DNA from: a virus
Reading direction: 5' to 3' (one strand)
Length of the DNA stretch: 64,000 nucleotides
IMG/VR virus record: IMGVR_UViG_3300037119_003505
Coordinates: 3,733 to 67,732 of that record
Part shown: positions 4,939 to 28,573 of the stretch, in pieces
How positions within the stretch are numbered: position 1 is the first letter of the stretch
Layout of the letters: every line of letters begins with the position of its first letter
Notes under the pieces: generated by a model
What the model saw: only the letters and a program-made list of their open reading frames with translations
Told to the model about the DNA's origin: nothing
Databases searched by the model: none
Translations under genes and position numbers: made by a program

Positions 4939-5196
4939 ATGCAACTGATTACCAAACGACCGGGACTGAATCTGAATTGCGTGCGCTGCAACTCAGCGGT
5001 GATTCTTGAAAAAGACGATGTTCAAGATAAGCTCGTTTATTTCGAATTCAGCACACATCCGGGACTGCAATCCACGCAGTTCTGGTTTTGGAGTTGCCCC
5101 GTGTGTCGTCACGACAACGCGGTGACACGACACACTCTCCCGATGGAGTGGCCTGCGTATCAACCGATTCCGCAATACGCCGCAATGCCAGCATGA
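4939..5196 (+). CDS. Zn-ribbon protein
   Basis: CVRC...CPVC; stop overlaps next start (ATGA). Confidence 0.6.
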   Translation: MQLITKRPGLNLNCVRCNSAVILEKDDVQDKLVYFEFSTHPGLQSTQFWFWSCPVCRHDNAVTRHTLPMEWPAYQPIPQYAAMPA

Positions 5197-5777
5197 GCCG
5201 CGAAAGCACGAAGGCCATGAAGCGCCGTTTTTTAGAAGACCAGTCCGGCACGCTGCCGTTCCGGTGGTGTGACGTGTTCATGGGCGACGGGATCGACATC
5301 GGATGCGGCGACGACAAGCTACCGTTTCCGTCGTGCAAGGGATTCGACACAAAGGATGGCGACGCCAACAAGCTGAGTGACTACTTCCCATCTGAGAGTC
5401 AGGACTTCGTGGCAGGCTCGCAAGCGCTCGAACACATGCACAACCCTGCGGCTGCGCTGCACGAGTGGCTGCGTTGCGTGAAACGTGGCGGATACATCGT
5501 GCAGACGATCCCATCGTGGGAATTATACGAAGGCATGGTGTGGCCTTCGCGCACGAATGGGGATCACAAATCCACATGGAGCATGTGGCAAAAGGGCAGT
5601 CCAGCGCCGCATCACTGCAAGATGCCAGAGTGGCTGGAGCAGTTCGGCTGCGAGGTGCTGATCTGTCGTCTCGTGGATAACGGATACGACTACAAGATCG
5701 GAACATCCAAGGATCAGACGTGGATTCCTGAGCATGGTGTTGAGGCGTTCATCGAATTCGTTCTGCGCAAGCCATGA
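5193..5777 (+). CDS. Class I SAM-dependent methyltransferase
   Basis: GIDIGCG motif I, QDFVAGSQALEH, WLRCVKRGG. Confidence 0.85.
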   Translation: MSRESTKAMKRRFLEDQSGTLPFRWCDVFMGDGIDIGCGDDKLPFPSCKGFDTKDGDANKLSDYFPSESQDFVAGSQALEHMHNPAAALHEWLRCVKRGGYIVQTIPSWELYEGMVWPSRTNGDHKSTWSMWQKGSPAPHHCKMPEWLEQFGCEVLICRLVDNGYDYKIGTSKDQTWIPEHGVEAFIEFVLRKP

Positions 5778-6355
5778 AGACCCCGACACAGCTACTCTGG
5801 GAACGGTTCGGTACAACCGAGCATCCCGCCGAATGGGACGGACGCGACGGCAACGGCGGCATCGGCTCGCAGCGGTTCTGGGAGTATCTGTGGGTGCTGC
5901 AACAGATCGGTACGCCGCAGAGCGTGCTGGATGTGGGCGGCGGTGCTGGGTTCTTTGCTGCGATACTGAACGACTCGGCAATTCAAGCGAACGTAGTTGA
6001 CCCGCTTCTTCCAGAATGGGGGAAAGCCGACTTCAAAAGCACACTAGAGCAATTCGTTGCAGCATCATTGACAGCAGACAATCGCTCAGGTTATGAATGG
6101 CTGGTATCAATTTCAGTACTCGAACACGTGCCAGACAAGCCCGCCTTCTGCGCCGCTCTAGACAGCTTCGACGCCCCGATTGCCCTCACGTTCGAGTTCG
6201 GGCCGGGATGCATCGAGATGCCCGAAGTGTACCGATGCTTGGCTGCCTTCAAGCGGCACCACATCACGAAGATGGAACTGTGCCCCGTCGTGGCCGACAA
6301 TAGCGACGCCTCGCGCTGGCGTCCGTTCGGCATCGTGCTGCAACCGAATTTATGA
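5774..6355 (+). CDS. Class I SAM-dependent methyltransferase
   Basis: VLDVGGGAG motif I, SISVLEHV. Confidence 0.8.
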   Translation: MKTPTQLLWERFGTTEHPAEWDGRDGNGGIGSQRFWEYLWVLQQIGTPQSVLDVGGGAGFFAAILNDSAIQANVVDPLLPEWGKADFKSTLEQFVAASLTADNRSGYEWLVSISVLEHVPDKPAFCAALDSFDAPIALTFEFGPGCIEMPEVYRCLAAFKRHHITKMELCPVVADNSDASRWRPFGIVLQPNL

Positions 6356-7071
6356 ATACCTTCACCGTCACGGTCGCGAACCGTATTCCGACTGAGCCGT
6401 ACTACCACTACGCCAGTTATCTGAACAGCCTCGCGCGGTTCGGCGTGGTGCCGGAAGTCGTAGGACTCGGCAGGCAATGGCTCGGCCTGATGACCAAGCC
6501 GGTGCGTTTTCGGAATTGGCTGCGTGACCAGCACTTCGAGGAACAGGATCGCGTCATCTACACAGACAGTTGGGACGTGCTGTTCGCCGCCTCGCCTGAC
6601 AGCATCGCGGCCAAGTGCGCAGAACTGTTCGGCGACGCTGTGGTTTACTGCACTGAAAAATCCTGCTGGCCCCTCGCAGAACTGGCGCATCACTTTCCAG
6701 ACGAAGGCACGCCTTGGCGCTACCTGAACGGAGGGGCTATGTGCGGGCCTGCGTGGAAGCTGCGGACGATGTTTGAGAGCATGAATCTGGAGCAGTATGG
6801 ATTCGACCGCGAAGATCTGGACAAGCCACGCATAGAGCCGAATGACGCGGTGCCGCTCGTCAAGGCTTTCGTCGAGCAGCCCGTGCTTGTGAAGGTGGAC
6901 GCCCGCTGTCAGGTGTTCCAGTGCTTCTCGGAATGCAGCGCGGATGAATTCGAGATCACGGAGGCCGGCGTGAAGAACAAGCTGACCGGAACCGTGCCTG
7001 GAATCCTGCATTTCAATGGGGGCAGCAAAGAATCCTTGATGCCTGCGGTTCTGGCCGCGATGAATTTATGA
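6352..7071 (+). CDS. PLOD/LH3-type GT-A glycosyltransferase domain
   Basis: YTDSWDV (DxxD), TEKSCWP, YLNGG, DARCQVFQ, ILHFNG match the order of motifs in the PLOD N-terminal GT domain. Confidence 0.75.
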   Translation: MNTFTVTVANRIPTEPYYHYASYLNSLARFGVVPEVVGLGRQWLGLMTKPVRFRNWLRDQHFEEQDRVIYTDSWDVLFAASPDSIAAKCAELFGDAVVYCTEKSCWPLAELAHHFPDEGTPWRYLNGGAMCGPAWKLRTMFESMNLEQYGFDREDLDKPRIEPNDAVPLVKAFVEQPVLVKVDARCQVFQCFSECSADEFEITEAGVKNKLTGTVPGILHFNGGSKESLMPAVLAAMNL

Positions 7072-7430
7072 AAGTACTGAACAACGACGAACGCGGCACC
7101 ATTATCGAAGTCGCAAAGAAAGCTGATGTGCTTCTCATCAGCAGCAGGGTTGGAAGCCGCCGCGCCAACCATTACCACAAGCGATTCGGACATCTCTGCA
7201 TCGTGGCAGAAGGATGCGTGCATTACTACGAGCGCGAGGTTGGCTCAAAGGAAAAACCAACAATGAAGGCATACGCGAAAGGCGAGACCTTTGATACAAG
7301 GCCGATGATGGAGCATCTGATGCTGTTTCCTGTAGAGACGGTTTTTTACTGCTACAGCTACGGCGCAAGGGACAAGGAAAACTACGAGGACGACACCGTG
7401 CGGCTGGCATTCCAACTGGACGAGCAATGA
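7068..7430 (+). CDS. Cupin (RmlC/FdtA-like sugar isomerase/epimerase)
   Basis: DERG, RANHYH cupin motif, position inside sugar cluster. Confidence 0.65.
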   Translation: MKVLNNDERGTIIEVAKKADVLLISSRVGSRRANHYHKRFGHLCIVAEGCVHYYEREVGSKEKPTMKAYAKGETFDTRPMMEHLMLFPVETVFYCYSYGARDKENYEDDTVRLAFQLDEQ

Positions 7431-8638
7431 TCACCGCACACCACAAATGCCGCCTCTGCGACAGCGGCAACATCGAGGAGGTCATCGACCTCGGCTACAG
7501 CCCGCTGGCGAACGCATACCTGACGAGCGACCAACTGGCCGACGTGCTGAGCGGCAAGCGCGAGGAAATCTTCACGCCGCTGCGCTGCTTCCTGTGCATG
7601 GAGTGCGGTTCAGTGCAGTTGAGCCACAGCGTCCCATCCGAAGTGCTGTTCGGCGACTACCTGTACGCTTCCTCAACGTCGCCGTCGTTCGTGCGGCATT
7701 TCGAGGACTTGGCGGTGCATTGCGTTGACCTTGGATTTGTGAAGGCTGGCGATGCCGTGGTTGACATTGGCAGCAATGACGGGATCGCGCTGAAGGCGTT
7801 TCAGGACAAAGGATGCAGGATTACAGGCATCGAACCTTCTGACAGACTGAGCGACATGGCGAACTCACGCGGGCTGGCGACGGTTTGCGAATACCTTGAT
7901 CCGAAGGTTGCGAAATACGTCTGCGGTGGAATCGGACCAGCCAAGATCGTCCTCGCCACGAACGTCTTCGCGCACCTCAGTGACCTGAAGGGCTTCGTCG
8001 AATCCGTGAAGCTGTTGCTCGACAAGGACGGCATCTTCGTGTTCGAGAACAGCTACCTCGGCGACGTGGTGGACGACATGCTGTTCGACACGATCTACAT
8101 GGAGCATCAGTTCTATCACTCGCTGACTCCTCTGGTGCGGTTCATGGAAGCAATGGAACTGCCTGTGTTTTACGTCGAACGGATCAATACTCACGGAGGA
8201 AGCATTCGGGTGTTTTGCGGACAGCGACCCGGTAAAGATTCTTCCGTTCTTGAAACCGTTGGCCGTGAGAGTCATCTGTGTGACCCGCGCACCTACCGCG
8301 CCCTCATGGACCGCATCCAGTGCTACAAACATCGATTGCATTCGGTGTTGCGACCAATTGGCAAAATGGCTGCGTTTGGATGCCCTGCAAAGTTCACCAC
8401 CTTCACTCACGCGCTGGATCTCACAGAGCGGTTCGATTATGTCGTGGATGATTCTCCGCTGAAGGTCGGGATGTTCACGCCGGGAAGTCATTTGCCGATT
8501 CAAGAGAAATACAAACTTGACGGCACGGTGACTGCGTTCGTGTCCGCATGGAACTTCTTCGATCCTATCTATGAACAAAACAAGGAACGCACAAAAGGCT
8601 GGATTCGTCCGCTGCCGCAACTGGAGGTTCTGCCATGA
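7427..8638 (+). CDS. NDP-sugar C-methyltransferase (TcaB9/NovU/EryBIII-like)
   Basis: N-terminal Zn site CRLC...CMEC, DLGYSPLAN, DIGSNDG, IYMEH, GCPAK, YVVDDSPLKVG. Confidence 0.88.
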   Translation: MITAHHKCRLCDSGNIEEVIDLGYSPLANAYLTSDQLADVLSGKREEIFTPLRCFLCMECGSVQLSHSVPSEVLFGDYLYASSTSPSFVRHFEDLAVHCVDLGFVKAGDAVVDIGSNDGIALKAFQDKGCRITGIEPSDRLSDMANSRGLATVCEYLDPKVAKYVCGGIGPAKIVLATNVFAHLSDLKGFVESVKLLLDKDGIFVFENSYLGDVVDDMLFDTIYMEHQFYHSLTPLVRFMEAMELPVFYVERINTHGGSIRVFCGQRPGKDSSVLETVGRESHLCDPRTYRALMDRIQCYKHRLHSVLRPIGKMAAFGCPAKFTTFTHALDLTERFDYVVDDSPLKVGMFTPGSHLPIQEKYKLDGTVTAFVSAWNFFDPIYEQNKERTKGWIRPLPQLEVLP

Positions 8639-9669
8639 CTGATTTGGAACTGAAGGACTGTTATGAAATTGAAAGTTCGCTAGGTTTTTCGGCGCATAGT
8701 TTCACGGGGAAACGAATCCTCATTCCAGGCGGGAACGGCTTTCTCGGAAAGGTGTTCATCAACTTCTTCCAATACCTGAACGCACATGCACTCACTGCCC
8801 CAGTAAAGATCGTCGCGGTGGACAACTACATCGTCGGAGTGAACCCAGTTCAACAGTCCACCGAGCACGTCACCTACCTGACGCACGACATGACGACACC
8901 ACTGCATCTTGCCGTGCGTGGACGGTTCGACTACATCCTGAACCTCGCCGGAATGGCGTCGCCTGCGGCCTACCAGAAGGTTCCGCTGGCCGTTCTGGAC
9001 GTGAGCTACATCGGCACCCGCAACGTGCTGGAACTCGCGGCGATCCACGGTTCCCGCGTCCTGAACTTCTCAAGTAGCGAGTGCTACGGAGATCCAAGTC
9101 CTGAGAACATCCCGACTCCAGAAACATACGACGGGCAACTGAGCAGCACGTCGAAGCGTGCGCCGTACGACTGCGGCAAGAAGGTTCTGGAGGCGCTGTC
9201 GCACGTCTTCCGCGAGCACTACGGCGTGGACGTGTCGATCATCCGGCCATTTAACGTCTATGGCTACATGCACCGCAACGACTACCGCGTGATCCCGAAC
9301 TTCGTCCATCAGGCACATGACTTCAAACCCATCCGCGTGTATGCGCCCGGCACACAGACGCGGACGTTCTGCTGGTACGGCGACTTCCTTGCTGGTGTCC
9401 TAACGGTGCTGTTGAAGGGGGGTGATTTCTGCTACAACGTGGGTGCGCAGGTTGGCGAGATCACGATGATGGAGCTTGCCCGCGCAGTCGAATCGGAGTT
9501 TGGCGGCAATGGGTTGGTGCAGATGGTGGATGCGCCGCCAGTTTACGTTCACGAACCGCAGCGTCGTTGTCCCGATATTTCCAAGCTGCGCGCGCTCAGC
9601 TACGAGCCGAAGGTGTCACTCCGCGAAGGACTCAAACGAATCCGCACATGGCTAACTTCTGCGTCATAG
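8635..9669 (+). CDS. UDP-glucuronate decarboxylase (UXS)-like NAD-dependent epimerase/dehydratase
   Basis: GGNGFLG, LAGMASP, SSSECYGDP, YDCGK (YxxxK), RPFNVYG, QTRTFC, PQRRCPDISK. Confidence 0.88.
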   Translation: MTDLELKDCYEIESSLGFSAHSFTGKRILIPGGNGFLGKVFINFFQYLNAHALTAPVKIVAVDNYIVGVNPVQQSTEHVTYLTHDMTTPLHLAVRGRFDYILNLAGMASPAAYQKVPLAVLDVSYIGTRNVLELAAIHGSRVLNFSSSECYGDPSPENIPTPETYDGQLSSTSKRAPYDCGKKVLEALSHVFREHYGVDVSIIRPFNVYGYMHRNDYRVIPNFVHQAHDFKPIRVYAPGTQTRTFCWYGDFLAGVLTVLLKGGDFCYNVGAQVGEITMMELARAVESEFGGNGLVQMVDAPPVYVHEPQRRCPDISKLRALSYEPKVSLREGLKRIRTWLTSAS

Positions 9670-10403
9670 GCACCGGCCCGTGGGGGCGCACAGTGGCGGC
9701 GAAGATTCAGGAACTCGGCCACGAGTGCGAGTCGTGCAGTGCGCGCGGTGATGACTATAAGATGCTGATTCTGCGCAATGAAATCGTGTTTGTAGCCGCG
9801 CACCCTGATGTCAATGTGGCGATTGCGGAGTTTGCGATACAGAAGGGCAAGCCCGTAATTGTGGAGAAGCCGGTCGCGTTCTCCGCCACGGCTGTCAAGG
9901 CGCTGCTGACTGCGTCCATCAAGGCCAAGGTGCCGTTCATTGTGGACTACATCCATCTGTTCGACAAAGACCTCTTGAAGATTCGGGACGGCACTCCGCA
10001 CAGCATGTCGGTCGCGATGGGTGGCGACACGGTGCGGGATTACTCGTCGCTCCACGATTACGGCAGTCACGCCTTCGCGGTCGCGCTGGAGTGTTTCAAG
10101 ACCCCCGTGACGGCCATTGAGGTGCTGCACCCTGGCGAGGCGTACCGGCTACGGTTCGGTTCCGGAATGGCGGAAGTGTTTGTCGGGAACAACTGGCCTG
10201 AGAAAGTTGTGAAGGTTAGGGCCATCGGGCAGGACTGGGATTTGCTGTGGCAGGACAGCCGCCAGAACGATCCGCTCGCCGCGCTGCTGAACAAGGTCGT
10301 GGAACTGCATGAACATGGGCGCTACTGGAGCAATGGGAATCTGGCCTTTCTGGTCACGGCGCTGCTTGAGAGGCTGCACAACGAATCGCCCGTCTTGAAA
10401 TGA
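9648..10403 (+). CDS. Gfo/Idh/MocA-family oxidoreductase
   Basis: VIGTGPWG Rossmann motif, VEKPV, DYGSH. Confidence 0.82.
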   Translation: MANFCVIGTGPWGRTVAAKIQELGHECESCSARGDDYKMLILRNEIVFVAAHPDVNVAIAEFAIQKGKPVIVEKPVAFSATAVKALLTASIKAKVPFIVDYIHLFDKDLLKIRDGTPHSMSVAMGGDTVRDYSSLHDYGSHAFAVALECFKTPVTAIEVLHPGEAYRLRFGSGMAEVFVGNNWPEKVVKVRAIGQDWDLLWQDSRQNDPLAALLNKVVELHEHGRYWSNGNLAFLVTALLERLHNESPVLK

Positions 10404-11392
10404 AGGTGGCATTTTTCCTCTCATCCACAGGCGGCAGCCCCCTACAGGTCGGCCTTGATCGCGGCCTTGTGTCGCTCGGCCATCAGGTCGAGCCGTGGCG
10501 AAGTGACGGCGGCTACGATCTCATCGTCGCGTTCAGCCAGTCCGCGCACTGCCCTTACGTGTATCCCGAACCGCCGTCGTGCCAGACACCGCTCGTGTTC
10601 GTGGACAGCAGCGAGTATGGCTGGAATACTCGCTTCACTACGGAACAGCGCCGCTCGTTCTGTAACTTCTTCGCCGCCGCCTCGCTGAAGCACGACACAA
10701 AGGTTGAGGTCGAGACGTTGCGCCTGAAACGCTACCTCGAAGGCCGCAGCTTCCCGTACTTCCTGCGCGAGTTTTATTCTGACCTGACCTTTCCGTCCTG
10801 CTACCACCCCATCGACTACCCGCTCTACGCCCACAGCCTGTGTCCGGCACGTCCGAGCTTGGACGACTACGTTCGGCGGCAAGAAGACCTGTTCCTCAGT
10901 TGGGGCATCAGCCACCCGTGGCGGCGCAACCTGACCGATCTGCTGCGGGCCGCTCCGGTGCGCTCTACAGTGCTGGCCCTTGAGGAGAACGGCACACCCA
11001 GGATGCCGCAGGCTGAGATGTTCGCCCGCACCCACTCGGCCCGTTGTAGCGCCAGCTTCGACGGCTACGGCAGCAGCAGCTTCCGACTCACTGAGGTGAT
11101 CGTACGGACGCTGTTGCTCAAGGGGCCGCTCTGCATCAAACTGCGTGAAGACCTGACCGATGGGCTGAACTGCGTCGAGTATCAGGTGACGGGCGACGGC
11201 GACACCTTTGTGAGCAGCAACATCGTGGAGCGGATGCTGTGGGCACTGGAAGATCCGGAGCGTGGCTTCCGTATCTACGAGGCTGGCTACCACCACTGCA
11301 TGTCTCGCTGGACGGAGACAGCGACCGCGCAGTACTTGCTCGATACGGTGGCGCGGCACGACTACTCGCAACCGACGCAGCTTGATCTATGA
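10400..11392 (+). CDS. GT-B fold glycosyltransferase-like protein
   Basis: C-terminal FDGYGSSSFRLTE...DGLNCVEY...ERGFRIYEAG resembles the Glyco_trans_1_2-type C-terminal domain; cluster context. Confidence 0.6.
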   Translation: MKVAFFLSSTGGSPLQVGLDRGLVSLGHQVEPWRSDGGYDLIVAFSQSAHCPYVYPEPPSCQTPLVFVDSSEYGWNTRFTTEQRRSFCNFFAAASLKHDTKVEVETLRLKRYLEGRSFPYFLREFYSDLTFPSCYHPIDYPLYAHSLCPARPSLDDYVRRQEDLFLSWGISHPWRRNLTDLLRAAPVRSTVLALEENGTPRMPQAEMFARTHSARCSASFDGYGSSSFRLTEVIVRTLLLKGPLCIKLREDLTDGLNCVEYQVTGDGDTFVSSNIVERMLWALEDPERGFRIYEAGYHHCMSRWTETATAQYLLDTVARHDYSQPTQLDL

Positions 11393-11602
11393 GCAATGAC
11401 TCAGGCGCAACTAACACTACCACCAAGAGCCATCGTGTTTACGGATGGTTTAAGTTCCGAGTCGGACGTAAGATTCAGGGCCGGACGCATTGCATGTCTT
11501 GCGAGAAGGTACAAGCCATTGGCGGGACTTCAAGATGACAGCTACTATTCCAGTCCTGCGTTTATCAAAGGATATTACTGGCAGAGAAATTATTGCCCTC
11601 TT

Positions 11603-12694
11603 ATGACCAAGCCCAAACGCACCCACGCCGTCACCGATGCTGTCCGCGCCGGACTCGCCAAGGCCCGCGCTGCCAGAGCAGCTAAGGCTGATCCTGTCTT
11701 GAAAAAGGCGCTCAAGGAACTGGCGAACCAGCGTCCGATGAAAACAGATGAACGCAAGTCTCTTGATGAGTTTTGTAGGTCTGAGTTTCGGGCGCTGACC
11801 GAACTGAGTCTCGACGAAGTGATGGGCCAAGCCATGCAACAGCATCCCGAGATGCAGGACTACGTGACATGCTGGCAGGTGGCGCAACTCGGCATCGCGC
11901 TGCCGCCGTGCAGCATGGACGAGGCGGATGCGGCGCTGAAGCGGGCGCAGATGCGGCATCGTGTCACCGTGACGGGCGAGCAGACGTTCGTCCACAGCGC
12001 GGACCTTGGCGACATTATTGCGGCGCTGCCGGTCATTCGTGCAATGGGTGGAGGTAAACTCATCATCACCGAACTTCCGCAGGGTCCGTTCCACGGGCGC
12101 GAAAGCCTCAGGGGTGCCCGATTTGACTCACTGAAGCCGTTGCTAGAACTGCAACCTTACATCACCTCTGTTGAGTGGGGTGAATCGCCGTTCGGAGTGA
12201 TCGATTTTCGCGGTTTCAGGCACGGCCTGCCCGGTGGTGAGAACCTGACGGTATCGCAGGCCCGCCACGTTGGCTGCGAGGACTTCAGCTTTTCCAAGTG
12301 GCTCGACGTTCCTGATCCGATTCCCGGCCCTGCGGTGTTCGCCCGTTCGCCTCGCTATTGGCAGCCTCGCATGAACTGGAGCATCATGTACGCTAAGCAT
12401 CCGGACGCGGTGTTCGTTGGAACAGAAAACGAACATGCCGAGTTTCAGAAAGCCACCAACATCACGTTGCCGCACCGAAAGACCAAGGATTTGCTGGAAC
12501 TGGCGCGAGTGATCGCAGGTTGTGAGCGGTTGTTCTGCAACCAGTCTTGTCCGCTCTGGATCGGGTTCGGCTTGGAGCATCCGCTGGTGCTGGAGGTGTC
12601 AATGGAGAACTCAATTCAGAACTCCATCATCGACAATCCGAAGTTCTTCTACATCGGCAACCAAACGCAGGCCGGGCGCGGAAACTGGCGCTAG
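11603..12694 (+). CDS. GT9 (heptosyltransferase)-like glycosyltransferase with basic N-terminal extension
   Basis: HSADLGDIIAALP and DLLELARVIAGCERLFCNQSCP motifs; start taken at MTKPKR (11603), ORF is open from 11396. Confidence 0.65.
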   Translation: MTKPKRTHAVTDAVRAGLAKARAARAAKADPVLKKALKELANQRPMKTDERKSLDEFCRSEFRALTELSLDEVMGQAMQQHPEMQDYVTCWQVAQLGIALPPCSMDEADAALKRAQMRHRVTVTGEQTFVHSADLGDIIAALPVIRAMGGGKLIITELPQGPFHGRESLRGARFDSLKPLLELQPYITSVEWGESPFGVIDFRGFRHGLPGGENLTVSQARHVGCEDFSFSKWLDVPDPIPGPAVFARSPRYWQPRMNWSIMYAKHPDAVFVGTENEHAEFQKATNITLPHRKTKDLLELARVIAGCERLFCNQSCPLWIGFGLEHPLVLEVSMENSIQNSIIDNPKFFYIGNQTQAGRGNWR

Positions 12695-13305
12695 TTCCGC
12701 TTCCAGCAAAATGACGGTGGTGGCGGAAGCTCTGATTCGTTCGGCACGATTGCTTCCAGCGGCGCGAAGACGAGGACCGACAACTGGCACCCACAATGCC
12801 CGCACGACTTCAGGCTCGCGCCGTGAACTGTGGTCTTGTTTCCGATGAAGCTGAAGATCCTCGCCGCCAGATCGGTGCAGCCGCCGCAACCTGGGAGGTA
12901 CGACGATTGATTCAGTGGACACGTCACGCAGATGGCTGCGCGGCGATCCGCCTCCGCTTGATCGACACAGGTTCCGTTGCTCCACCAGTCACGAATCTTG
13001 GAAAAGAATGTCTTCAGGTCGTCCCAAGTGATGAGTCGCTGCTGTTTCAAGAACTCAGGCGTGTCGGTGCCGATACGACGACAGGCTTCGGCGCGAAGGC
13101 TTGGCGACAGGGCACGGCAGCACGCATCGCTGAAGACTGCGAGTTCGTTGTCGAACTTCAACCCAAGTTGTTTGCAACGTGCGTCGAACAATTCTTTAAC
13201 CTGCTCTGCCGATCCAGCCCGCACCACTTCATCGGTGCCGGGTATCACGGCAGCGTCCCTCGGTGCTCCGTTGCGGCTCCACCAGTATTCGACGTTATCG
13301 GCCAC
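12691..13305 (-). CDS. Cys-rich putative Zn-binding hypothetical protein
   Basis: RRAAICVTCP, CGGC, CGHCGC; last gene of the virion operon. Confidence 0.65.
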   Translation of the reverse strand: MADNVEYWWSRNGAPRDAAVIPGTDEVVRAGSAEQVKELFDARCKQLGLKFDNELAVFSDACCRALSPSLRAEACRRIGTDTPEFLKQQRLITWDDLKTFFSKIRDWWSNGTCVDQAEADRRAAICVTCPLNQSSYLPGCGGCTDLAARIFSFIGNKTTVHGASLKSCGHCGCQLSVLVFAPLEAIVPNESELPPPPSFCWKRN

Positions 13306-16300: not shown

Positions 16301-19300
16301 CTTCACGATCCGTTCGTTCAGCTTCGTGACGTAATCGGTTTCCGCTTGTGTCAGTGGTTCACCACCGAGCGCGGCGCGGCGCTTGTTCAGCATATCGACC
16401 AGTGTGTAGTCCTCGCGCGCCAGCTGTTGGCGGAACACACCCAAACGTCCCCACTCCGTTCCTGCCGCCTTGGTAGCGTTGTCGATGTCGTTCATCCGAT
16501 CCAACAGGACGGCGCTTTCGAGTTGCGCGGATGCCTTTGCTTGTGGCGACGATTCGGGATCGTTCACCACGTCCATCTCGCGGTAGAAGGCGTTCTGAAC
16601 GTCGATCTTGTGCCGCAGCATGATGGCTTCCTCGGTGGCCGTCACGGTGCGTGGCTTGCCGTTGATCTCCGCGACCAGTTTTTCGCCGGCCATCGGGTTG
16701 CGCTCCAGTTCCATCATGGCGGCGTCCCACACTTCAGGATGCGATTGCCGTAGCGCCGTCATCATGGGCGGCAGCCCGCGCGCGACACGTTCCTCGTCCA
16801 CAATCTCGTTCTTGGTGGCGGTGACGCGCGGTTCACGCACGCCCTTGAGCGGATTCACGACCGCGCCAGTTTCGCGACTGCTCAGCGGACGCAGCCTGCC
16901 TGGCGACGGTTCGTTGCTGTTGCTCGGCATCGGCCTGTCCTGCGGTGTGGCGGCGCTAGGTAGCAGATGCGACTCCAGCGCCTCCTTGGCGGCAGTCTCG
17001 TCCATCTGGTGTCCGGTGCTGCGGAAGTGCTCCAAAGCAGCCGCAATGGCCCGTGCGACGCTTCTGGTGGCCTTCAGGACGCCGATGGCGATGTCGATGC
17101 CGGTGTTCCAGATGGCGCGGAAGCTGGCGGGATCGAGGCCGGGGAAGATACTGATTTGCAGCGTGTCGGTCGGCTTCTTCTTCGCGGCTTGGAGGCGCGC
17201 GATGGCGGCGTCGATTGCGCCGGGTTTGTCGAAGATGTCAGCCTGTGGGTCTGGCGGCGCGAACATGTCCACCTCGGGGCGGATGTCGTCCTTTGCCAGC
17301 AAGCGTCTGCTCTGCGCGAGACGGAAGTCTTGTTCCTTTTGGAGTTCCGCTTTGGCTGCTTCGTCCGCGACTCGCTCGGCTTCTAGTTGCTCTGGTGTTT
17401 TCTTTGCGTCACCGATTGACATTTCTGGAGTGCCCCACTTCTCCAGTCGCACTGCGAGTTCGTCGGCGTTCAGTTGCGTGAACTTGTCGCCGCGCTCCAC
17501 AGACTGCCTCAACCGATCCACCGATGTTGCAATGTTCCGGTTGTAGTCTGGCCCGTATTGCGTGTACGGCGCGGCGAGTGCCAAAAGTTCCTGCGGTGTC
17601 TTTCCGGCGAACGCAGTGTCATCTTGCGTCTTGAATCCCCCTGCTTCCGCCTTTTGTGCTGCGGCGATCTTCCGTGCATCTTCCTGCTGGCGCTGCCACT
17701 CAGCCTTTGCGCGAGCATCGTTGGGAGACACACCATCCGGCCCGCGCTGCGTAACGCCTTCTTTGCCAGCGCGCAGTCCTTCGAGGAATTTCACCACATG
17801 GAACGTGCCGCCCGCAATCTCGCGCGTCTCGCCAGTGTACTCGGCCTTGTCGCCGTTGATGTAGGTCGTCGGCGCTACTTCGCCGCCTGTCGCCGCAACT
17901 TCAGACGCATCAGCCTGCCCTTGGGTGTCAGCCCGTTGTTCCGATGAAGCTGCTCCAGTCTCTCTAAGAGGAAGTTTCGCGGTTTCGACGGGCTTGGCGG
18001 CGTCATGGACGAGGATGTAGTCATTGGCCTTCTCGGGTGTGTCGAGGCTAGGCCATGCGTCCTCTGGGTCAAGCAGGAATTCCTCGCCCAAGGTGTCCGG
18101 TTCCATCGCCGCCACAGCCTCATCGTGCGCCTGTTGCTTCGCCATTTCGGATTTGCTCTTGTCCACCATGTTGCGCAGCTTCGGCAACAGTTCGGACTGC
18201 GCGATGGAGTCGTCGGCGTGAAGGGTGGCGGGGTCGCCGCCCAGCGCCTTCATGGCGTCCTCGATGGCGAGACGCCGATGCTGTTTCTGCGCGATCTCCG
18301 CTGCGGTGCCTTCCATGCCGAGTGAGTGCGGCAGGTAGAAGCCGAGTTCCGGATGCGCTGTCACCAGCTTCTTGAACTCGGTGGCGTCCTTTTTGATGCG
18401 CTTCCGATCCTCTGGCTTCATGCCCTCGAACTGTTGCTCGTTCAGCGCCCTCGTTCTTGCAGCCTTGGGCAGCATCACGTTGCCGAGCGGCACGCTCTGT
18501 GTCTCGCCGCCTTTGAAGCTGACGCTCTTGTCGAACTTCACCTGAACGCTGTCGCCCTGCACATCCAGCACGGTTGCCTTGTGGGCTTTGTTGCTGCCCT
18601 TCCGCAGCGTCACCTCTACGGATGCGCTGGGAATGATCTTGGATGGCTGCACGGCTTCCTGTGCCGGTGTCGGCGCTGCTACCGATTCGGTAGGTTTCGG
18701 TAAAGCGTCGGTAGCTGAAGCAGTCCCAGCCGCCTCCACCGGAGCCTCGGTTGCCTGCGCCTTTGTCGCGGCGATTGGTTCCGGTGTTCGCTCAGGCAGC
18801 GGCGCTTCGACCGGCGCTGGCGGCTGGGGTGAAGGAGTTTCGAGTGGCTTCGCTACTTTCGATTCTGGCACTGCTGAATCGGTTTTCGGCAGCGCTTGCA
18901 CGCTTTCTGTTTTGGCTTCATCGGGTTTCTTGGATTCGGGTTCAGCAGCCTTCTTCTCGGCCTTCTGTTTGATCTTCGTTTCGAGTCTCTTGATGGCAGC
19001 CGACACGGCAGTTATGATCTCCGCCTGCGCGGTTTCGGCGTGCGCGTCGCCGGTCTGTTCGTGCAGTTCCGCCCCGATGTCGTGCTGCTCTGCCGTCTGC
19101 ACGAAACCGTCGTCACGGGCCTGTTGCGCGGCTTCTTTGGACGCCTCAGCGGCTTGGTATGAGGCTTCCGCTGCCGCAATGTGGGGTTCGGCCTTCACGG
19201 CTTCGTCTCGGAACTCCGCATACATGTCGGCGTCATCCAGGAACGACTCTCGTTCCTTTGGCTTCATACCCTTTGTGAAAACATCGTCCACCCGTTGCGT

Positions 19301-20812
19301 TGCTTCGTTGAGCGCTGCGTCTCCAATGGTTCCGTTGTCGCGCCGCATCCTCCATGACGCGAGCGCGAGTCGCCGCGCCTCCATCGTGTCGAGATACGTC
19401 TTGGCGTTCTTGTACGCCCCAATGCCGCCGATGGCTGCGCCCAGCCCGATGTCCATACCGAACTTACCGAGCGGTGCGCCCGTGCGCTTGCCGGTCTTGT
19501 AGTCCATCGGACCCAGCATGTCGTCCTTGAGCTGATCGGTGAACGACTTGTGGCCGTGCAGCATCGCGTCCGCCACTTCGACGGCTCGCATCGAAGCGAA
19601 GTTTGCCGCGCCGGCCCCAAGTGCGCCGCCTGCTGTGGCGACGTATGGGTTGTACTTGAGCTTCGGTGCCAGCATGGGCATCAGTCGCTTGCCTACGAGG
19701 TTGCCGGTCGCCTTGCCGACGACGTGCATCAGCGCCAGCTTCGCGGACTCAATCGCCATGTCCTTGAGGTAGCCTTTCTCCAATGGGCTGAAGGTCGTGC
19801 CGTGCTTGGCGCTGGCGATGTTGGCCGCTGCGGTCGTGGTGGTGAGGACGGCTTCAAGGTTCTTGAGGCGTTTCGCCGCCTTGAGGGTCTGTGCGGCTTT
19901 GCTGGCGACACTGACGTATCGAACACCCTTCACTGTCGAGCCGACAACTTTTGCCAGTCCGCCGAATCCAGAGACAGCACCCACAAGGTCGCCCGTCATG
20001 GCGGCATAGGGATGCTGTTCCTGAATCTGCTGTGCCCAGTAGTCGCGGATTGCCGCCACGTACGCGGCCTGCTTGGGATCGGACGGGTCGTAGTTGGCGG
20101 TCGTGAGTTTGGAGAAGATGTTTTGGACGTTTCGGCCGAGCAACGATGTCGCGAGTGAAGCGGCGGAGGTTGTCCATCGGTCTGCCGTCACGGACGCCGA
20201 ACTCACGTTCTTGTTGGCGTACTTCCGAAGCTCAGTCTCGATCTCGTTCGCGCTCTTGTTCAGCCATCCGGTCTTTCCGGTCACGTCACCCGGCAGCCCT
20301 GACTGCGCGGCCACAGGTGCGCCTTTCTTGAACGCATCGGAATGCAGCGCTGCGGTGTAGGCGTCGTACCATTGCTTCGCCACGGGCTTTTTGTCTGGCG
20401 TCAGGTCTTTGATGTCAGGATGCGACTCGTCCATCGCGGCCTCCTGTTCCGCTGCGGTCATCGGGCGGTCGCCGTTCGCGATCATCTGCTGCGCGGTGTC
20501 GTGCTGTTGCTGATACAAGCTGCGGATGTGCGAGATCACGGGCGCGGGCACGTTCTGGTCGTGCAGCGAATCCAGTTCCGCGTCCTTCTGCTGGTGCCAC
20601 GCAGTCATGGCCTTTGCCTGCCAGTCCTTCGGTCTCTCGGCGAAGAGACGGTTTTGCATCAGTTCATCGAAGCTGTTCAGGCCGGTAGTGGCGACTTCCT
20701 CTGGATCGATCTGCGGCTCCGGTGGTGCAGCGGCATTGAAGACAGTCGGCCCCACGGATGGGGTGGACTGCGGCTTGGGTAGCGCTTCAGGTTCGGGTGC
20801 GTACTCGACCAT
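13295..20812 (-). CDS. Giant 2505-aa internal virion/ejection (large polyvalent-like) protein
   Basis: Size, Ala/Lys/Glu-rich coils, position after two other low-complexity virion genes; no catalytic motif recognised. Confidence 0.7.
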   Translation of the reverse strand: MVEYAPEPEALPKPQSTPSVGPTVFNAAAPPEPQIDPEEVATTGLNSFDELMQNRLFAERPKDWQAKAMTAWHQQKDAELDSLHDQNVPAPVISHIRSLYQQQHDTAQQMIANGDRPMTAAEQEAAMDESHPDIKDLTPDKKPVAKQWYDAYTAALHSDAFKKGAPVAAQSGLPGDVTGKTGWLNKSANEIETELRKYANKNVSSASVTADRWTTSAASLATSLLGRNVQNIFSKLTTANYDPSDPKQAAYVAAIRDYWAQQIQEQHPYAAMTGDLVGAVSGFGGLAKVVGSTVKGVRYVSVASKAAQTLKAAKRLKNLEAVLTTTTAAANIASAKHGTTFSPLEKGYLKDMAIESAKLALMHVVGKATGNLVGKRLMPMLAPKLKYNPYVATAGGALGAGAANFASMRAVEVADAMLHGHKSFTDQLKDDMLGPMDYKTGKRTGAPLGKFGMDIGLGAAIGGIGAYKNAKTYLDTMEARRLALASWRMRRDNGTIGDAALNEATQRVDDVFTKGMKPKERESFLDDADMYAEFRDEAVKAEPHIAAAEASYQAAEASKEAAQQARDDGFVQTAEQHDIGAELHEQTGDAHAETAQAEIITAVSAAIKRLETKIKQKAEKKAAEPESKKPDEAKTESVQALPKTDSAVPESKVAKPLETPSPQPPAPVEAPLPERTPEPIAATKAQATEAPVEAAGTASATDALPKPTESVAAPTPAQEAVQPSKIIPSASVEVTLRKGSNKAHKATVLDVQGDSVQVKFDKSVSFKGGETQSVPLGNVMLPKAARTRALNEQQFEGMKPEDRKRIKKDATEFKKLVTAHPELGFYLPHSLGMEGTAAEIAQKQHRRLAIEDAMKALGGDPATLHADDSIAQSELLPKLRNMVDKSKSEMAKQQAHDEAVAAMEPDTLGEEFLLDPEDAWPSLDTPEKANDYILVHDAAKPVETAKLPLRETGAASSEQRADTQGQADASEVAATGGEVAPTTYINGDKAEYTGETREIAGGTFHVVKFLEGLRAGKEGVTQRGPDGVSPNDARAKAEWQRQQEDARKIAAAQKAEAGGFKTQDDTAFAGKTPQELLALAAPYTQYGPDYNRNIATSVDRLRQSVERGDKFTQLNADELAVRLEKWGTPEMSIGDAKKTPEQLEAERVADEAAKAELQKEQDFRLAQSRRLLAKDDIRPEVDMFAPPDPQADIFDKPGAIDAAIARLQAAKKKPTDTLQISIFPGLDPASFRAIWNTGIDIAIGVLKATRSVARAIAAALEHFRSTGHQMDETAAKEALESHLLPSAATPQDRPMPSNSNEPSPGRLRPLSSRETGAVVNPLKGVREPRVTATKNEIVDEERVARGLPPMMTALRQSHPEVWDAAMMELERNPMAGEKLVAEINGKPRTVTATEEAIMLRHKIDVQNAFYREMDVVNDPESSPQAKASAQLESAVLLDRMNDIDNATKAAGTEWGRLGVFRQQLAREDYTLVDMLNKRRAALGGEPLTQAETDYVTKLNERIVKLEQQHEQDLRNREVELERVKNEAIDEAIKRMKAEQERTDPMAQSIYQRIKKGLHSEAEKARERIRERLGKASAGIDPTVLYDVSIIGADKLLTVGENFVKWSAAMLEDLGDFIKPHLDEAFEKSKKFLDDTVDANVPKPDRPKVKRTAKKDQTVEEKKQDVLDSLKRKADTPEAIGGYIQKLAKLFVAQGITEREALVTAVHDAVKPILPESTNREIRDAISGYGDYHELSKDEISVKLRDLKGQLQQVSKLDDMLKEGKLPSKTGVERREPSADERTLIKEVNRVKKELGLEATDENQLKSARDAIKSRLRNELEELQRALETKQRIPSNKRTLEDDAETAQLRRDVRAKRKEYTDMLGIDTAAIEGAKEDALKKSIAALEQQIATGELEPSPGTPTADTAEVSALKSRRDALLKQKAAIRKPGIESDALDQRIDALEKKIAAGDLSAKVSAKRTDTPENAEKRAKLAELNKQLADMRKAAKPKLTPDQVALKIWKSRAEKRLADLLDRTARSDFSKKPRKTVTLDAAANATKAKIEAAKLEFDRANHKAQQANRTGWEKLLDIIPKASRFNLLTSPVTLAKLTAAAAWRAVFTPIEDLVGAGLSKIPGLDAIAAASPRHSGFNTSAQIAAITKGITKGGKDAWDLLTKGESEFEVLSGKRRIEDHDWWEIPGRIHGALKSTTKRGEYERALQMRIEFAANHGVDVTDPNVLTKLQVDSYKDAQRAIFMHDNALVSRYQRFVRSLGEPDKITGKVNRGMKLLQTALKTTFPIVKIPTNIVAEAFDYIAGHLVGGFKVRRAFKEGISNLKPEEADTIMRQLKKGSVGSALLLAGYLLPQFIGGYYQRGKKQDDDLKAGDVKAGDSTVSHTLLHNPAIEMLQVGATVRKVAESKARKADSETQGMGAGIYASAVGLADQIPFIKEMTNISTAMSPNDRHKYWGELARSRIEPALLQWIAKQIDKDENSEPVKRQTETLTEYLKSGIPGLRNTLDEKRSRRGR

Positions 20813-24405: not shown

Positions 24406-24434
24406 ACTCTATGGAGTCTGTGCGGCGGTGTCAA
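24406..24434 (-). promoter_or_regulatory. Sigma70-type promoter TTGACA-N17-TAGAGT
   Basis: Perfect -35 and 17-bp spacing upstream of the adaptor/ejection operon. Confidence 0.7.
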
Positions 24435-25300
24435 CCACGAATGAACAGCGCGCCTTCGTTCGTGGACTGCTCTGCGAATTTCTTCCACGCAACGGCGTTA
24501 TTCGGAAAACTCATCTCCGCCATCAGCATCAGTGCTTCCTTGAAGTTGGCGTTGACGATCAGCGCCTTCATGCACGCATCCCTTGCTTCGGAGCCTCGTT
24601 TTTCGAGCCAAAGAATCTTGGCGATGTAGAGCCATGCGTCCGCCTTCTCGGCTGGAAACTTGCTGTGCTGAGTGCATCTCAAGAATAATTTACCGGCGTT
24701 GGCATAATCCTTCCGGTACCAGTATTCACGGGCGAGGTAGTAAAGGTTTCGCGCGTGATCTGGATTGAGCGCAACCTGCTTGGAAAGAATTCGGATGTAT
24801 CGATCCGGATCGAGTTTGTGTGCAGGGCTGTAGAGACATTCGCGCCGTAAACTGCCCCTCATTCCGTTTAGGATACTTTGATTCTCAAACAGGTTTTCGT
24901 GCGCCTCGCCCATCCAATGGATACTTGGCAGATTTTTCCACAGCACCGTGCGCCAGCGTTGCGCTTGATCTTGCAGTGCGATGGCATTGCATCTGGCCTC
25001 TTCGGCGCGGACAATCTCAGTCTTTATTTCAGCAATGCTGGAGATGATCCTGTGATCGGCGTCAAGACTCAGAACCCAATCACCCGTAGCCCGCGCCTTT
25101 GCACTGTTTCTAGATGCGCTGAAATCATCCGTCCAAGGCTCTGAAAATACGAGTGATGTAAACTTGCGCGCGATCTTCTGTGTGGAGTCGGTGCTGCCAG
25201 TGTCCACCACCACAATCTCGTCCGTCTTGCGAACGCTTTTCAGCGCGCCCTCAATCATCTCTCCCTCGTCCTTCGCGATCATGACAACCGAAAGCCTCAT
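24431..25300 (-). CDS. GT2 glycosyltransferase with C-terminal TPRs (SunS/SgtA-like)
   Basis: [36 protein letters not shown]; TPR-like RNLYYLARE...AWLYIAK. Confidence 0.9.
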
Positions 25301-25887
25301 ACTCCAGGCCAAAACACTATGAGGGATTGAGTAGCGCCGTCCCAGTCCAAGTAATGCAGATTGATTTGCGGCGGTTCAAACGGCGGCCCGGTCGGACCTA
25401 TGGGGCCAGTGGGTCCGGTTGGTCCCGTAGGACCAGTCGGCCCTGTTGGACCGTCTAATCCCGTTGGTCCCGTAGGGCCATCGTCACCAGTCGGACCTGT
25501 CTCACCAGTCGGACCCGTGGGACCGTCGCCACCCGGAGTTCCGGCTGTGCCTTGCTGCCCGTCCTTGCCAGGTCCCGGAACCTCACCCATCGGCCACACC
25601 GGAGGTACGTAGGGCGTAACTGACGGCGCGAATGACGGCATTCGGCTCTCAAGCGGTCTCGTCTGTGGGCCTTCTTTCCAAGACGGAACCGCGTTACGCA
25701 TCGCCTCGGCAAGACCGTCCAGCGTGACGGCTGGAGCGTTCTTGCTCGGCGTCGGGTTCGGCTGCCGCTGCATGTCCTTGAGCTTGTCGAGCGCGGATCG
25801 CTGATCCAGCTTTGCGAGCGCCTTCTCGGCATCACGCGCAGTTTTGCGCTGTGCCGCTTTCTCAGGAGTCCATTGTGCGTCCGGCAT
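25297..25887 (-). CDS. Collagen-like (GPT-rich) protein, probably virion fibre/decoration
   Basis: About 21 uninterrupted Gly-X-Y triplets, mostly GPT. Confidence 0.8.
25381..25569 (-). repeat. Gly-X-Y collagen repeat (9-bp degenerate tandem)
   Basis: [39 protein letters not shown] (GPT)n GPI GPT GPP read from DNA. Confidence 0.9.
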
Positions 25888-25888: not shown

Positions 25889-27652
25889 TTATGGGTAAGG
25901 GTAAAGCCCCTCGATGATGGTGTACTCCCACAGCTTGAACCCTACCTGCCGATGTGTGATCTCAAACACCACCCATTCGTCAAACGGCGGAATTGTCTGA
26001 GTTGGGGTTGCGGGAAGCGAGGCGGTGTAGAAGCCGCCGTCGTAGAAAACGGAGCTTCCGTACAGCCCAACCGTGATCTCTGGATGGATGGTTTCGGGGA
26101 TCGTCCATGTCCTTGAGTCGCTGATCGGCACACCGTCGATCCGAACAGACGCAAATCCCGCCACGATGGTGTCGGCCCGCTTGAGCCACTTCTTGATGGT
26201 CGGCAGGCCGGCGAAGAAGTTCGCACTGGTGGGGTCGGAGGTGTAGCGTTTCGTGAAGCGCGCCACACACGGACCCCGGTACGCCTGCTTGATGTACGCC
26301 CCCATCGCGATGCTGGCCGAATAGCCTGCTGATTCGGCCCGATAGAGCGTCACGGCCTCCAGCACGTCGGGCCAGTAGTTGTAAACGTGCAGCCCGTAGC
26401 TCAGGATGTCGAAGCGGTTGTCCAGATTGATCATCCAGTCAAGATTCCGCCAGTCCCGTTCCGACACGATCCGGATGCTGCGCAGCCCGTCCATCCCCAT
26501 CGGCTTGTACTCGATCTGCACCTCGGAACCGCCCGTGAAGGCTGCCGTCATCTCGGCAGTCAGGAGCGCCGGAGTGGCCGGCATGGCGGATTGCGCGATG
26601 ATCTGTTTGGTCGTGCGGGCTGCCCGAAAGGTCGTCTGATCCACGTCGCTCTCGGGAATCAACGGCCCATAGACCGGCTCGTAGATGCGGATCAGCGCGA
26701 CGATCTTTTCCTTCTCTCGCTCGTAGGATTGGTCGAGAAGTTTCAGGTAGTATCCGACCGTGAAGGTCAGGCTGCTGTGCGTCCCTGTGGCGGCTGCACT
26801 GAGGACAAAAACAGTCCCGCTGGTGATGCTGACGACGGTTGCGCCTACCGGGATGTCGGTGCCGGTAATCAAAGCTCCGGGATACAGCCTGGCGGTGGAG
26901 GCGACCGTGACGGACGTGGTGCCGTTGGTTGCGCCTCCAGTCAGCGGCGTGGTGTCACCGAACACCGCTGTCGTGTAGCCGGGAATCGGACAGGTTGTTG
27001 TGAGGGGTGTTGCTGGAACTTCGGAGTTGCACGGGACGCGCCATGTAACACGAGGCCAGTTAATCAGGCCGTACGGGTAATCGGTTTTTGTGCCGAACAA
27101 TTTAGCGGCAGCGAGGTCGCCAGAGTCCGACAAATCCGGCACCTCCATGAAGACGCGCGTGACCTTGATGAACAGGCTTTGCAACACCTTGTCGTCCACG
27201 TCTTCCTCCTTGTCCGGAAGCACCAGGATGCAGCCCGGAAACATTGCCTCGCTGTCGCCGTTCTTGAGTCCCGGATCTGCGGTGCCGAGCGCGAGCGGTC
27301 CATCTTCAAGATACTGCTCGCGCGGGTAAACGTACGTCCGTGTGATATGCGGGAACGCATTGCTGCCGGTCGGATAATCGACGGTGAAGTTGTAGTCATC
27401 CTGACGCTCCCGGTCTTTCGCGTAAACGATGATTGACCATCCATCGCCAACTTCCTTGTCCGGTGCGATGAGGCAAACCTTGTGCTCGGGCCACTCTATC
27501 CGGTACTTTTCAGGAACTTGGTCTCCATACTGCGGAAACTTGTAGCCTTGCCCGAACGTCTGAACCCGTTCGTAGAGGTAAACGTCCTCTATGGTCGGGG
27601 TGGAGAAAGTTGCCTGAAAGAGCTTCCCAGGCACCGGAACGGTCTGCGGCAT
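25889..27652 (-). CDS. Virion structural (tail) protein with inserted Thr/Gly-rich beta module
   Basis: 587 aa at the head of the virion operon; [35 protein letters not shown] module typical of fibre/surface proteins. Confidence 0.55.
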
Positions 27653-27928: not shown

Positions 27929-28573
27929 TTATAGCATGAGGCTTTCAATCTCCCTTGCCAGTGCGAGAATCAGATTGCGAGTGCCGACACGCTGCTTTGA
28001 TTCACAAACCAACGCATGAAGCGCCTTCGGGAAGTCCTTTACCATCGAAGGCTGTGCGGATTGAACTTGAGTCATCTCCCCGTTGCCTCGCAGCTTCTTG
28101 TACACGATCAGCGCATTCGCCATCAGACTCGCTTTGTTGCGGTCGTTTTTGTACCGTTTCTTGACGAACTTTTTGAACTGGTGCCGATCCAGTCTTGCAA
28201 CAGCCTGAGCGATTTCCGGCGTAGCCGCCATGTGCGACTGAATCCTCTTTGGTTCTGACAGATTCGGCAGCGGCACCGCAACCATTCCGTCTCTCAGTAG
28301 CAGGACTGTTTTCTTGCGCAGTTCCAGTGGTATCCCAGCCCGTGAGATGTTGCCGATCTTGATGTGCTCCTCGATGCCTTCGTGACAACGGCGACAGAGC
28401 GGCATCAGGTCTTCGAGCGGTTCCTTAAAGATGCGGGCGTACGTCAGGTGGTGTACCTGCATCTCTTGCGCCGAGCCGCAGGCTTCGCATCGGTTGCCGC
28501 TTACGGTCATGGCGTTCAGGCGCTTCTCCTTCCACTCAGGGCTGTCCAGATAGTCTCGGTATTCTTGTGTCAT
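27929..28573 (-). CDS. HNH endonuclease
   Basis: YLDSPEWKEKR, CEAC, VHHLTY, LCRRCH. Confidence 0.85.
   Translation of the reverse strand: MTQEYRDYLDSPEWKEKRLNAMTVSGNRCEACGSAQEMQVHHLTYARIFKEPLEDLMPLCRRCHEGIEEHIKIGNISRAGIPLELRKKTVLLLRDGMVAVPLPNLSEPKRIQSHMAATPEIAQAVARLDRHQFKKFVKKRYKNDRNKASLMANALIVYKKLRGNGEMTQVQSAQPSMVKDFPKALHALVCESKQRVGTRNLILALAREIESLML

Follow-up and report, generated by a model that had tools for sequence, protein, structure and literature searches.

Phage glycosyltransferases are usually assumed to target DNA or the host envelope, and to our knowledge glycosylation of phage-particle proteins has been shown experimentally only for some mycobacteriophages. What such an enzyme acts on when its gene overlaps that of a collagen-like protein is the question raised by a 64,000-nucleotide stretch of viral DNA (the window; bases 3733-67732 of the 74,062-bp viral record IMGVR_UViG_3300037119_003505). 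In an earlier note, made from the letters of the window, this gene pair was proposed to be a BclA/SgtA-like couple inside a virion operon, in which the enzyme would prime Thr residues of a phage fibre and a second operon at 5-12 kb would extend the sugars. The analysis described here led us to a reading that we consider rather probable on comparative grounds, in which the enzyme would O-glycosylate Thr residues of a collagen-like virion fibril, as a phage version of SgtA/BclA3. No description of a pairing of a phage collagen-like protein with a glycosyltransferase was found in the open-access literature. The features of the pair are as follows.

25297..25887, minus strand: collagen-like protein, 196 aa (open reading frame (ORF); Pfam Collagen; sister-phage orthologues)
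25381..25569, minus strand: collagen-like region, aa 107-169, proposed Thr acceptor sites (triplet count; three-copy model)
25297..25300, minus strand: ATGA stop/start overlap coupling the collagen-like and glycosyltransferase genes (sequence read directly)
24431..25300, minus strand: GT2 (GT-A fold) plus TPR-like glycosyltransferase, 289 aa, SgtA/GmaR homologue (Pfam, profiles, fold)
25055..25063, minus strand: DAD motif (D80-x-D82), presumed metal and nucleotide-sugar site (invariant alignment columns)
24461..24808, minus strand: helical TPR-like domain, aa 165-280, presumed to recognise the protein substrate (model; sub-threshold Pfam; SunS/ThuS and SgtA alignment)

Collagen-like gene and its overlap with the glycosyltransferase gene

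The 196-aa protein consists of an N-terminal part of 104 aa, 21 uninterrupted G-X-Y triplets (aa 107-169), and a C-terminal tail of 27 aa. Thr occupies Y in 12 of the 21 triplets and Pro occupies X in 13, and the Pfam Collagen family (PF01391) was matched at 5.5e-8, above its curated cut-off, so the collagen-like protein with G-P-T repeats described in the earlier note was recovered. No second collagen-like frame exists elsewhere in the 74,062-bp genome. An orthologue from another phage begins with nearly the same 71 residues and, judged by this conserved N-terminus, the ORF is a real gene.

When three copies of the protein were modelled together, residues 103-170 lay within one three-chain interface, with an interface score (ipSAE) of 0.58 compared to 0.00 for the best control, a contact agreement between runs of at least 94%, and a predicted local distance difference test (pLDDT) of at least 77. 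Among calibration proteins of solved structure, 20 of 30 same-chain pairs and 1 of 23 single chains reached the mark used for ipSAE. This model is a likeness only, and may echo the memory that the predictor has of well-represented solved collagen helices.

The stop codon of the collagen-like gene (TGA, 25299-25297) overlaps the ATG of the glycosyltransferase gene (25300-25298) in the context gtATGAgg, as the earlier note had stated. The enzyme was aligned with 23 metagenomic homologues of 39-49% identity, all 23 of which start at the same Met (M-K/R-I/L-S). Therefore, the true start is at 25300, and not at the TTG at 25312 or at the later Met of the database call.

Pairing of both genes across viral and bacterial loci

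Relatives of the enzyme are encoded by at least 498 viral contigs. Synteny was counted in the best 80 viral loci, with a collagen-like ORF defined as one of at least 8 triplets. Such an ORF was present in 64 of these loci and lay within 300 bp of the enzyme gene in 31, as a rule immediately ahead of it on its strand, with a gap or overlap of a few bases (46 upstream versus 6 downstream within 2 kb). Collapsing enzymes of more than 70% identity left 52 lineages, 40 of them with a same-strand collagen-like ORF, which was found within 2 kb in 33 lineages and within 300 bp in 15. With these ORFs placed at random within their own loci, 2.46 adjacent lineages would be expected, compared to the 15 observed, a number reached in none of 200,000 simulations. 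The pairing of enzyme and collagen-like gene is very unlikely to be due to chance, and co-occurrence across related phages, which the earlier note had put forward as a check, was thus borne out.

In the adjacent collagen-like proteins, Thr was found at 69% of Y positions and Pro at 45% of X positions; for bacterial collagens, Thr at Y has been put at 31.6% overall and at 48.3% in the Gram-positive ones (PMC8968730). Fifteen of 16 adjacent collagen-like proteins matched PHROG tail-fibre families, some of these matches reaching non-collagen C-terminal parts. For the 196-aa protein, the tail-fibre matches fell mostly on the repeats, past which there is no distal domain (27 residues only).

The pair of lineage L029 is preceded by a P22-like portal and coat protein and followed by a PIG-L/methyltransferase fusion (L029:10888-11937 region), a DUF6625 protein and a sugar C-methyltransferase. 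Loci selected by the L029 P22-like coat protein were tried as controls, but they returned almost only the same lineage and were unusable as a baseline; the few more distant relatives of this coat protein had neither enzyme nor collagen-like ORF, but their loci were short.

Among 80 loci of bacterial relatives, a collagen-like neighbour was found in 18, all from Clostridia or other spore-forming Firmicutes, and in none from outside the Firmicutes. The nearest relative of the enzyme in species genomes, encoded on a 2.7-kb contig, had 37% identity, and the others were near 30%.

Joint change of enzyme and repeats in sister phages

The genes on both sides of the pair served as landmarks for the comparison with sister phages.

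25889..27652, minus strand: 587-aa modular phage protein, possibly a tail or fibre component (homologues; sister-phage synteny)
23336..24349, minus strand: 337-aa protein, unknown family, next gene downstream (ORF lists)

The 587-aa ORF adjoins the collagen-like ORF with a 1-nt gap and keeps its place in the sister phages, where the position of the 337-aa gene is taken by that of a 333-aa protein. In the complete phage L081 (78.5 kb, terminal repeats), the homologue of the 587-aa protein is 49% identical and is followed by a 50% identical orthologue of the collagen-like protein (P0121, 189 aa), with nearly the same 71 N-terminal residues and a similar short C-terminal motif. The repeats of P0121 are G-Tyr-Ser and G-Ser-Arg, and the next gene encodes a 478-aa protein whose C-terminal half matches phrog_1962 'glycosyltransferase' at 5e-35. 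No GT2-TPR gene was found anywhere in the L081 genome. In L166 (a 75.9-kb contig), the homologue of the 587-aa protein is 65% identical, the small protein (P0274, 191 aa) carries G-[Tyr/Trp/Phe/Leu]-Ser repeats, and the next enzyme is 75% identical to that of L081 and unrelated to GT2-TPR by profile comparison (hhalign probability 0.2%). In the more distant L165, a 758-aa gene occupies the position of the 587-aa gene (a match by position only), the small protein (P0123, 170 aa) keeps the N-terminal domain and has no collagen repeats, and the next gene encodes a Methyltransf_21 plus Glyco_transf_29 protein.

The slot behind the small protein was therefore filled by a glycosyltransferase in every phage compared (this window, L081, L166 and L165), and enzyme family and repeat chemistry switched together while the flanking genes were kept. 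On comparative grounds, this joint switch is what an enzyme together with its acceptor should show, and we regard it as our most informative result.

Two further observations were made on the sister phages. The aromatic G-Tyr-Ser and G-Trp-Ser repeats (L081:11768-13731, L166:8440-10390) are of unusual composition for a collagen, and the N-terminal half of the two-domain glycosyltransferase matches a sialyltransferase PHROG weakly (0.007).

These data bear directly on a different account of the pair, in which the enzyme glycosylates other virion proteins (the 587-aa protein, capsid or tail) and owes its place next to the collagen-like gene only to their common membership of a variable tail-fibre module. 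Tail-fibre regions are indeed hot spots of gene exchange (PMC10202952), the substrates of the enzyme family are varied (flagellin, glycocins), and the collagen-like ORF lies more than 300 bp away in 25 of the 40 lineages and is missing from 16 of the 80 loci. However, the adjacency is far above that of random placement, the ORF is mostly directly upstream on the same strand with few-base gaps or overlaps, and repeat chemistry tracks enzyme type among constant flanking genes, so we consider this account improbable.

Relatives of the glycosyltransferase

The 289-aa enzyme matched Pfam Glycos_transf_2 (PF00535) at 1.1e-16, whereas its TPR matches were sub-threshold (TPR_14 6e-4, TPR_2 4e-3); Pfam TPR families are present in many of its homologues. 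The AlphaFold2 model (pLDDT 95.7, predicted template modelling score 0.86) consists of a GT-A domain followed by seven paired helices (aa 167-278), and is compact, soluble and without a membrane segment. No other GT2-TPR gene was found in this genome. In searches of the PDB, the family profile matched the glycosyltransferase domain of GmaR at 2e-45, followed by SunS/ThuS at 1e-28; by single sequence GmaR was matched at 4e-22, with about half of residues 3-99 identical. The sole strong fold matches in Foldseek were ThuS and SunS (TM 0.71-0.74, E ~1e-18, sequence identity 16-20%), the next ones, such as TarS and RmlT, being ten orders weaker at 1e-8.

SgtA is a 358-aa GT-A plus TPR enzyme whose gene lies just upstream of bclA3, and in vitro it adds beta-O-N-acetylglucosamine (GlcNAc) to Thr (and Ser) of collagen-repeat peptides, UDP-GlcNAc being the only donor used (PMC7157674). 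The phage profile was run against 41 genomes of the family of Paeniclostridium hominis, which holds Clostridioides difficile, and 28 of these matched at E <= 1e-20, the best with proteins of ~360 aa. In one 4.1-Mb genome, a 358-aa enzyme was encoded directly upstream of a collagen-like gene that opens with MSRNKYFGPFDDN and also contains VGPTGPMGPRGRTGP and TGATGLIGPTGATG. These are the published BclA3 peptides SML7, SML8 and SML3, the SML7 match being near-exact, and therefore the locus is sgtA-bclA3. The phage enzyme aligned with this SgtA at 31% identity over 230 aa by BLASTP (E 3e-27) and over 236 columns by hhalign (E 2.4e-43 at a probability of 100%), a stretch that takes in the catalytic domain and the first of the helical repeats. 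By these two alignments, the phage enzyme is a real SgtA homologue, C-terminally shorter.

The genomes of the C. difficile family (G002-G042) often contain 2-7 matches to the enzyme, in ORFs of ~360, 500 and 750 aa. In addition, a metagenome-assembled genome of Oscillibacter (L117:5580-9074) carries two tandem BclA-like genes (376 aa each), the products of which have a conserved N-terminal motif and a globular C-terminal part, followed by a gene for a 360-aa SgtA-like enzyme that matches the phage enzyme at E 3.7e-42. This locus suggests that the SgtA/BclA arrangement extends beyond Clostridioides and Bacillus.

As in SgtA-BclA3, a GT-A plus helical-repeat enzyme adjoins in the window a collagen-like gene of the same orientation with Thr at Y. 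In contrast, the clostridial pair belongs to the spore exosporium and not to a phage, the phage enzyme gene is the downstream one and is coupled through ATGA, and the phage enzyme, of 289 aa compared to 358 aa, is without the last ~100 residues of SgtA. The collagen-like protein shares with BclA a region of G-P-T-type triplets, but BclA is an exosporium protein with a globular, C1q-like trimerisation domain (~130-150 aa) at its C-terminus, where the phage protein has a tail of 27 aa. As the BclA-type C-terminal domain is lacking and the context is that of a phage, the collagen-like protein is therefore an analogue and not a member of the BclA family. The BclA/SgtA-like pair, the central reading of the earlier note, holds through homology with SgtA itself, phage synteny and sister-phage covariation.

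GmaR of Listeria monocytogenes also has a glycosyltransferase domain followed by TPRs and modifies a folded structural protein in the cytoplasm; it puts GlcNAc on flagellin, recognition of the protein substrate being ascribed to its TPR (PMC9638930). It differs in its substrate and in its 637 aa, which include linker and anti-repressor (MogR) domains, whereas the phage enzyme ends after the helical repeats. SunS and ThuS match the fold over both the GT-A and the helical domains, and SunS is encoded in prophage SPbeta. They are, by their PDB names, S-glycosyltransferases, which act on small glycocin peptides with Cys as the acceptor residue. Mycobacteriophage glycosyltransferases reportedly decorate the capsid and tail-tube subunits of their own phage. 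That system is said to be alike in that phage enzymes modify the structural proteins of the phage in the host cytoplasm, and unlike in its capsid and tail-tube acceptors, its other enzyme families and its want of collagen repeats. Finally, according to the passage of PMC8968730 that cites Luther et al. 2011, Mimivirus encodes a collagen-like protein together with the enzyme that glycosylates it. As described in that passage, however, this is a eukaryotic giant virus, in which a PLOD-type enzyme puts the sugar on hydroxylysine. In the window, a single Lys falls within the collagen region and the analysis turned up no hydroxylase; a gene resembling PLOD-GT is present at 6352-7071.

All of the nearest characterised relatives of the enzyme have protein or peptide substrates, which places it, by homology, in the protein-glycosylating branch of GT2. 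This weighs on another account, that of a 'moron' acting on host envelope glycans or phage DNA and blocking superinfection or restriction. These are the roles usually proposed for phage glycosyltransferases (PMC10202952), the family matched by the enzyme, PHROG 13126, is named beta-1,4-glycosyltransferase and filed under moron/auxiliary genes, and homologues in jumbo phages sit near a DNA ligase gene. Nevertheless, a confident model shows a soluble GT-A plus helical-repeat protein without membrane segment, translational coupling ties the gene into a long operon of late type, and its synteny with collagen genes is conserved. Together with the protein or peptide substrates of the relatives, this makes a moron quite unlikely.

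Residues D33, G35, S36, D38, D80, D82 and H134 were invariant in the alignment of homologues, D80 and D82 being, as we presume from general knowledge of the GT-A fold, the metal-binding residues. Although its gene lies directly downstream of fibre genes, the usual place of a chaperone, and TPR domains mediate protein-protein contacts (PMC9638930), a protein that serves mainly in fibre assembly through its TPR domain, with catalysis secondary or lost, is very unlikely, as nucleotide-binding and DxD residues that are invariant in 24 homologues at 39-49% identity argue for selection on catalysis. Overall, adjacency by chance, an action on DNA or the host envelope, and a chaperone with dead catalysis are rated unlikely, by the adjacency statistics, the relatives and the invariant motifs.

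Proposed mechanism

In the reading that we prefer, that of Thr glycosylation of the collagen-like fibril, the 289-aa protein would work in the cytoplasm as a soluble GT-A glycosyltransferase that depends on metal. Its TPR-like domain would hold the unfolded or folding 196-aa chain, made just before from the same mRNA, while the catalytic domain would move a sugar from a nucleotide sugar to the Thr hydroxyl at the Y position of G-P-T triplets, before trimerisation. The analogy to SgtA and GmaR makes UDP-GlcNAc the most likely donor. The glycosylated chains would then wind, three together, into a triple helix of ~18 nm. The resulting short fibril of glycoprotein would be attached to the virion by the conserved N-terminal domain. 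Its sugars would stand in for hydroxyproline, hydrating and stabilising the helix, and would give the fibril a glycan surface.

Some homologues (P0004, P0029, P0037, P0063, P0103 and others) are fused to S-adenosylmethionine-dependent methyltransferase or PIG-L domains, PIG-L being a GlcNAc de-N-acetylase. These fusions and the neighbouring genes hint that the first sugar is an N-acetylhexosamine, later de-acetylated or methylated.

Several points weigh against this mechanism. The phage is uncultured. The collagen-like protein is small, ends in a 27-aa tail and has no neighbour tied to a known virion fold. Among the viral loci, the 16 of 80 without a collagen-like ORF have to be counted, though many loci end early, and the distant homologues in the cultured jumbo phages PaBG and Y3 do not lie beside collagen genes, their neighbours including a DNA ligase and a head protease. 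The enzyme has no counterpart of SgtA residues 250-358, which include the annotated TPR block, its gene order relative to the collagen-like gene is opposite to that of sgtA-bclA3, and its family serves non-collagen substrates too, as with GmaR (flagellin) and SunS (peptide). Moreover, a collagen-like gene was found in only 2 of 22 fetched SgtA-sized loci of the C. difficile family (~1.5 kb on each side).

Genomic setting of the pair

The source record has a CheckV completeness of 94%, its two ends are near-identical over ~125 bp (judged by eye), and it carries phage markers for the large terminase, a primase-helicase and a replication initiator. The DNA of this phage was found in three soil metagenome runs, which may be its source; no RNA run was listed for the window. 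The pair lies within a tightly packed run of minus-strand genes that extends from an HNH endonuclease gene (27929-28573) down to 12691, and a scan of the run past the terminator at 28768-28742 gave no strong minus-strand terminator.

Scans with Pfam and PHROG returned nothing usable for the neighbouring proteins (587, 337, 388, 460, 2505 and 204 aa), the 337-aa protein being without a match in either, or for the presumed head proteins (794 and 416 aa). The 587-aa protein has 426 homologues with a common N-terminal ~170 aa and variable C-termini. Its AlphaFold2 model (pLDDT 75) gave no match in the PDB by Foldseek at E <= 0.001, matched only uncharacterised phage proteins in BFVD, and reached VIA-align Z values of 6.0 at most, those of tail-tip proteins at aa 82-174 (Z 4.3-5.0) being within noise; in the ESM Atlas, only leads below the noise level were obtained. 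The leads on this protein were viral throughout and weak.

Because the neighbours give no recognisable virion fold, we infer the virion role of the operon. The location of the pair on the virion is suggested by gene order and by a peptidoglycan-binding domain in a downstream protein of the sister phages. Gene order and tight coupling make it plausible that the pair sits inside a virion operon, as the earlier note had it, but a recognisable virion fold was found in none of the neighbours.

Other observations were made in this region. Within the 587-aa protein, a segment of ~65 aa (aa 233-300) has up to 12 matched stretches in other proteins, of up to 4166 aa, of the representative library, and looks like an undescribed repeat domain of phage or bacterial surface proteins. 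The last gene of the operon of the pair is the 2505-aa ORF (13295-20812, minus strand), without Pfam or PHROG match, whose translation shows by eye charged repetitive stretches and a hydrophobic C-terminal part, and which may be ejection- or tape-measure-like. A promoter-like sequence, TTGACA-17-TAGAGT (10/12), lies at 24406-24434 on the minus strand, over the stop of the glycosyltransferase gene and before the 81-nt gap to the 337-aa gene; promoter-like sites numbered 6 in the region compared to 3.9 expected, which is not above chance. Two HNH endonuclease genes were noted, the one at 27929-28573 of the window (minus strand), directly ahead of the operon of the pair, and one at 128-931 of the genome (plus strand).

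The sugar operon at 5-12 kb

5088..12694, plus strand: sugar-nucleotide tailoring and glycosyltransferase operon (Pfam)

By Pfam, this operon encodes two methyltransferases, a GT_PLOD protein (5e-25), a sugar C-methyltransferase, a 4,6-dehydratase/epimerase and a GFO_IDH_MocA oxidoreductase. The complete sister phage G001 was found to be without GT2-TPR, dehydratase, C-methyltransferase and PLOD-GT-like gene, whereas, as a positive control, the dehydratase query was matched in G000. Homologues of the C-methyltransferase were found at most 10 kb from GT2-TPR in 15 of the 80 loci, the examples listed being all of the L029-type group. In the 66 genes behind the enzyme in the dereplicated lineages, tailoring domains were rare (PIG-L 3, DUF6625 3, methyltransferase 2, GT9 1). 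This rarity counts against a general link with such operons. Most phages probably add a simple sugar. For the phage in the window, the link of the operon to the collagen pair is suggestive, and the extension of the sugars by this operon, as imagined in the earlier note, is weakly favoured by the co-absence in G001, the tailoring genes of L029 and the methyltransferase and PIG-L fusions of homologues, but not by the genes that generally follow the enzyme.

Meaning for phage fibres

The analysis ties an abundant phage enzyme family, found on hundreds of viral contigs, to an acceptor that is specific and makes chemical sense, namely collagen repeats rich in Thr, of which phage fibres very often consist in part. 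Collagen fibres with a sugar coat may thus be a common feature of phage particles. The swap of enzyme and repeat between sister phages makes this acceptor idea directly testable. If it holds, it would account for the stability of phage collagen helices in the absence of hydroxyproline and would add a glycan layer that matters for how phages recognise their hosts, persist in the environment and are seen by immune systems. It would also provide small soluble enzymes with matched repeat substrates for glycosylated collagen-like biomaterials, and Tyr or Ser glycosylation of the aromatic repeats of the sister phages would be new chemistry.

More tentatively, and with the odds somewhat against so broad a statement, the collagen-like fibres of tailed phages might generally be glycoproteins made by a two-gene cassette of an acceptor repeat and its cognate glycosyltransferase, both halves being swapped together: G-P-T with an SgtA-like GT2-TPR, G-Tyr-Ser with a phrog_1962-type enzyme, and a non-collagen tail with a GT29-like one. 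Such a cassette would give phages a quickly changeable glycan coat on the fibres that contact the host, and a layer of virion diversity that would be invisible to host-range prediction from sequence.

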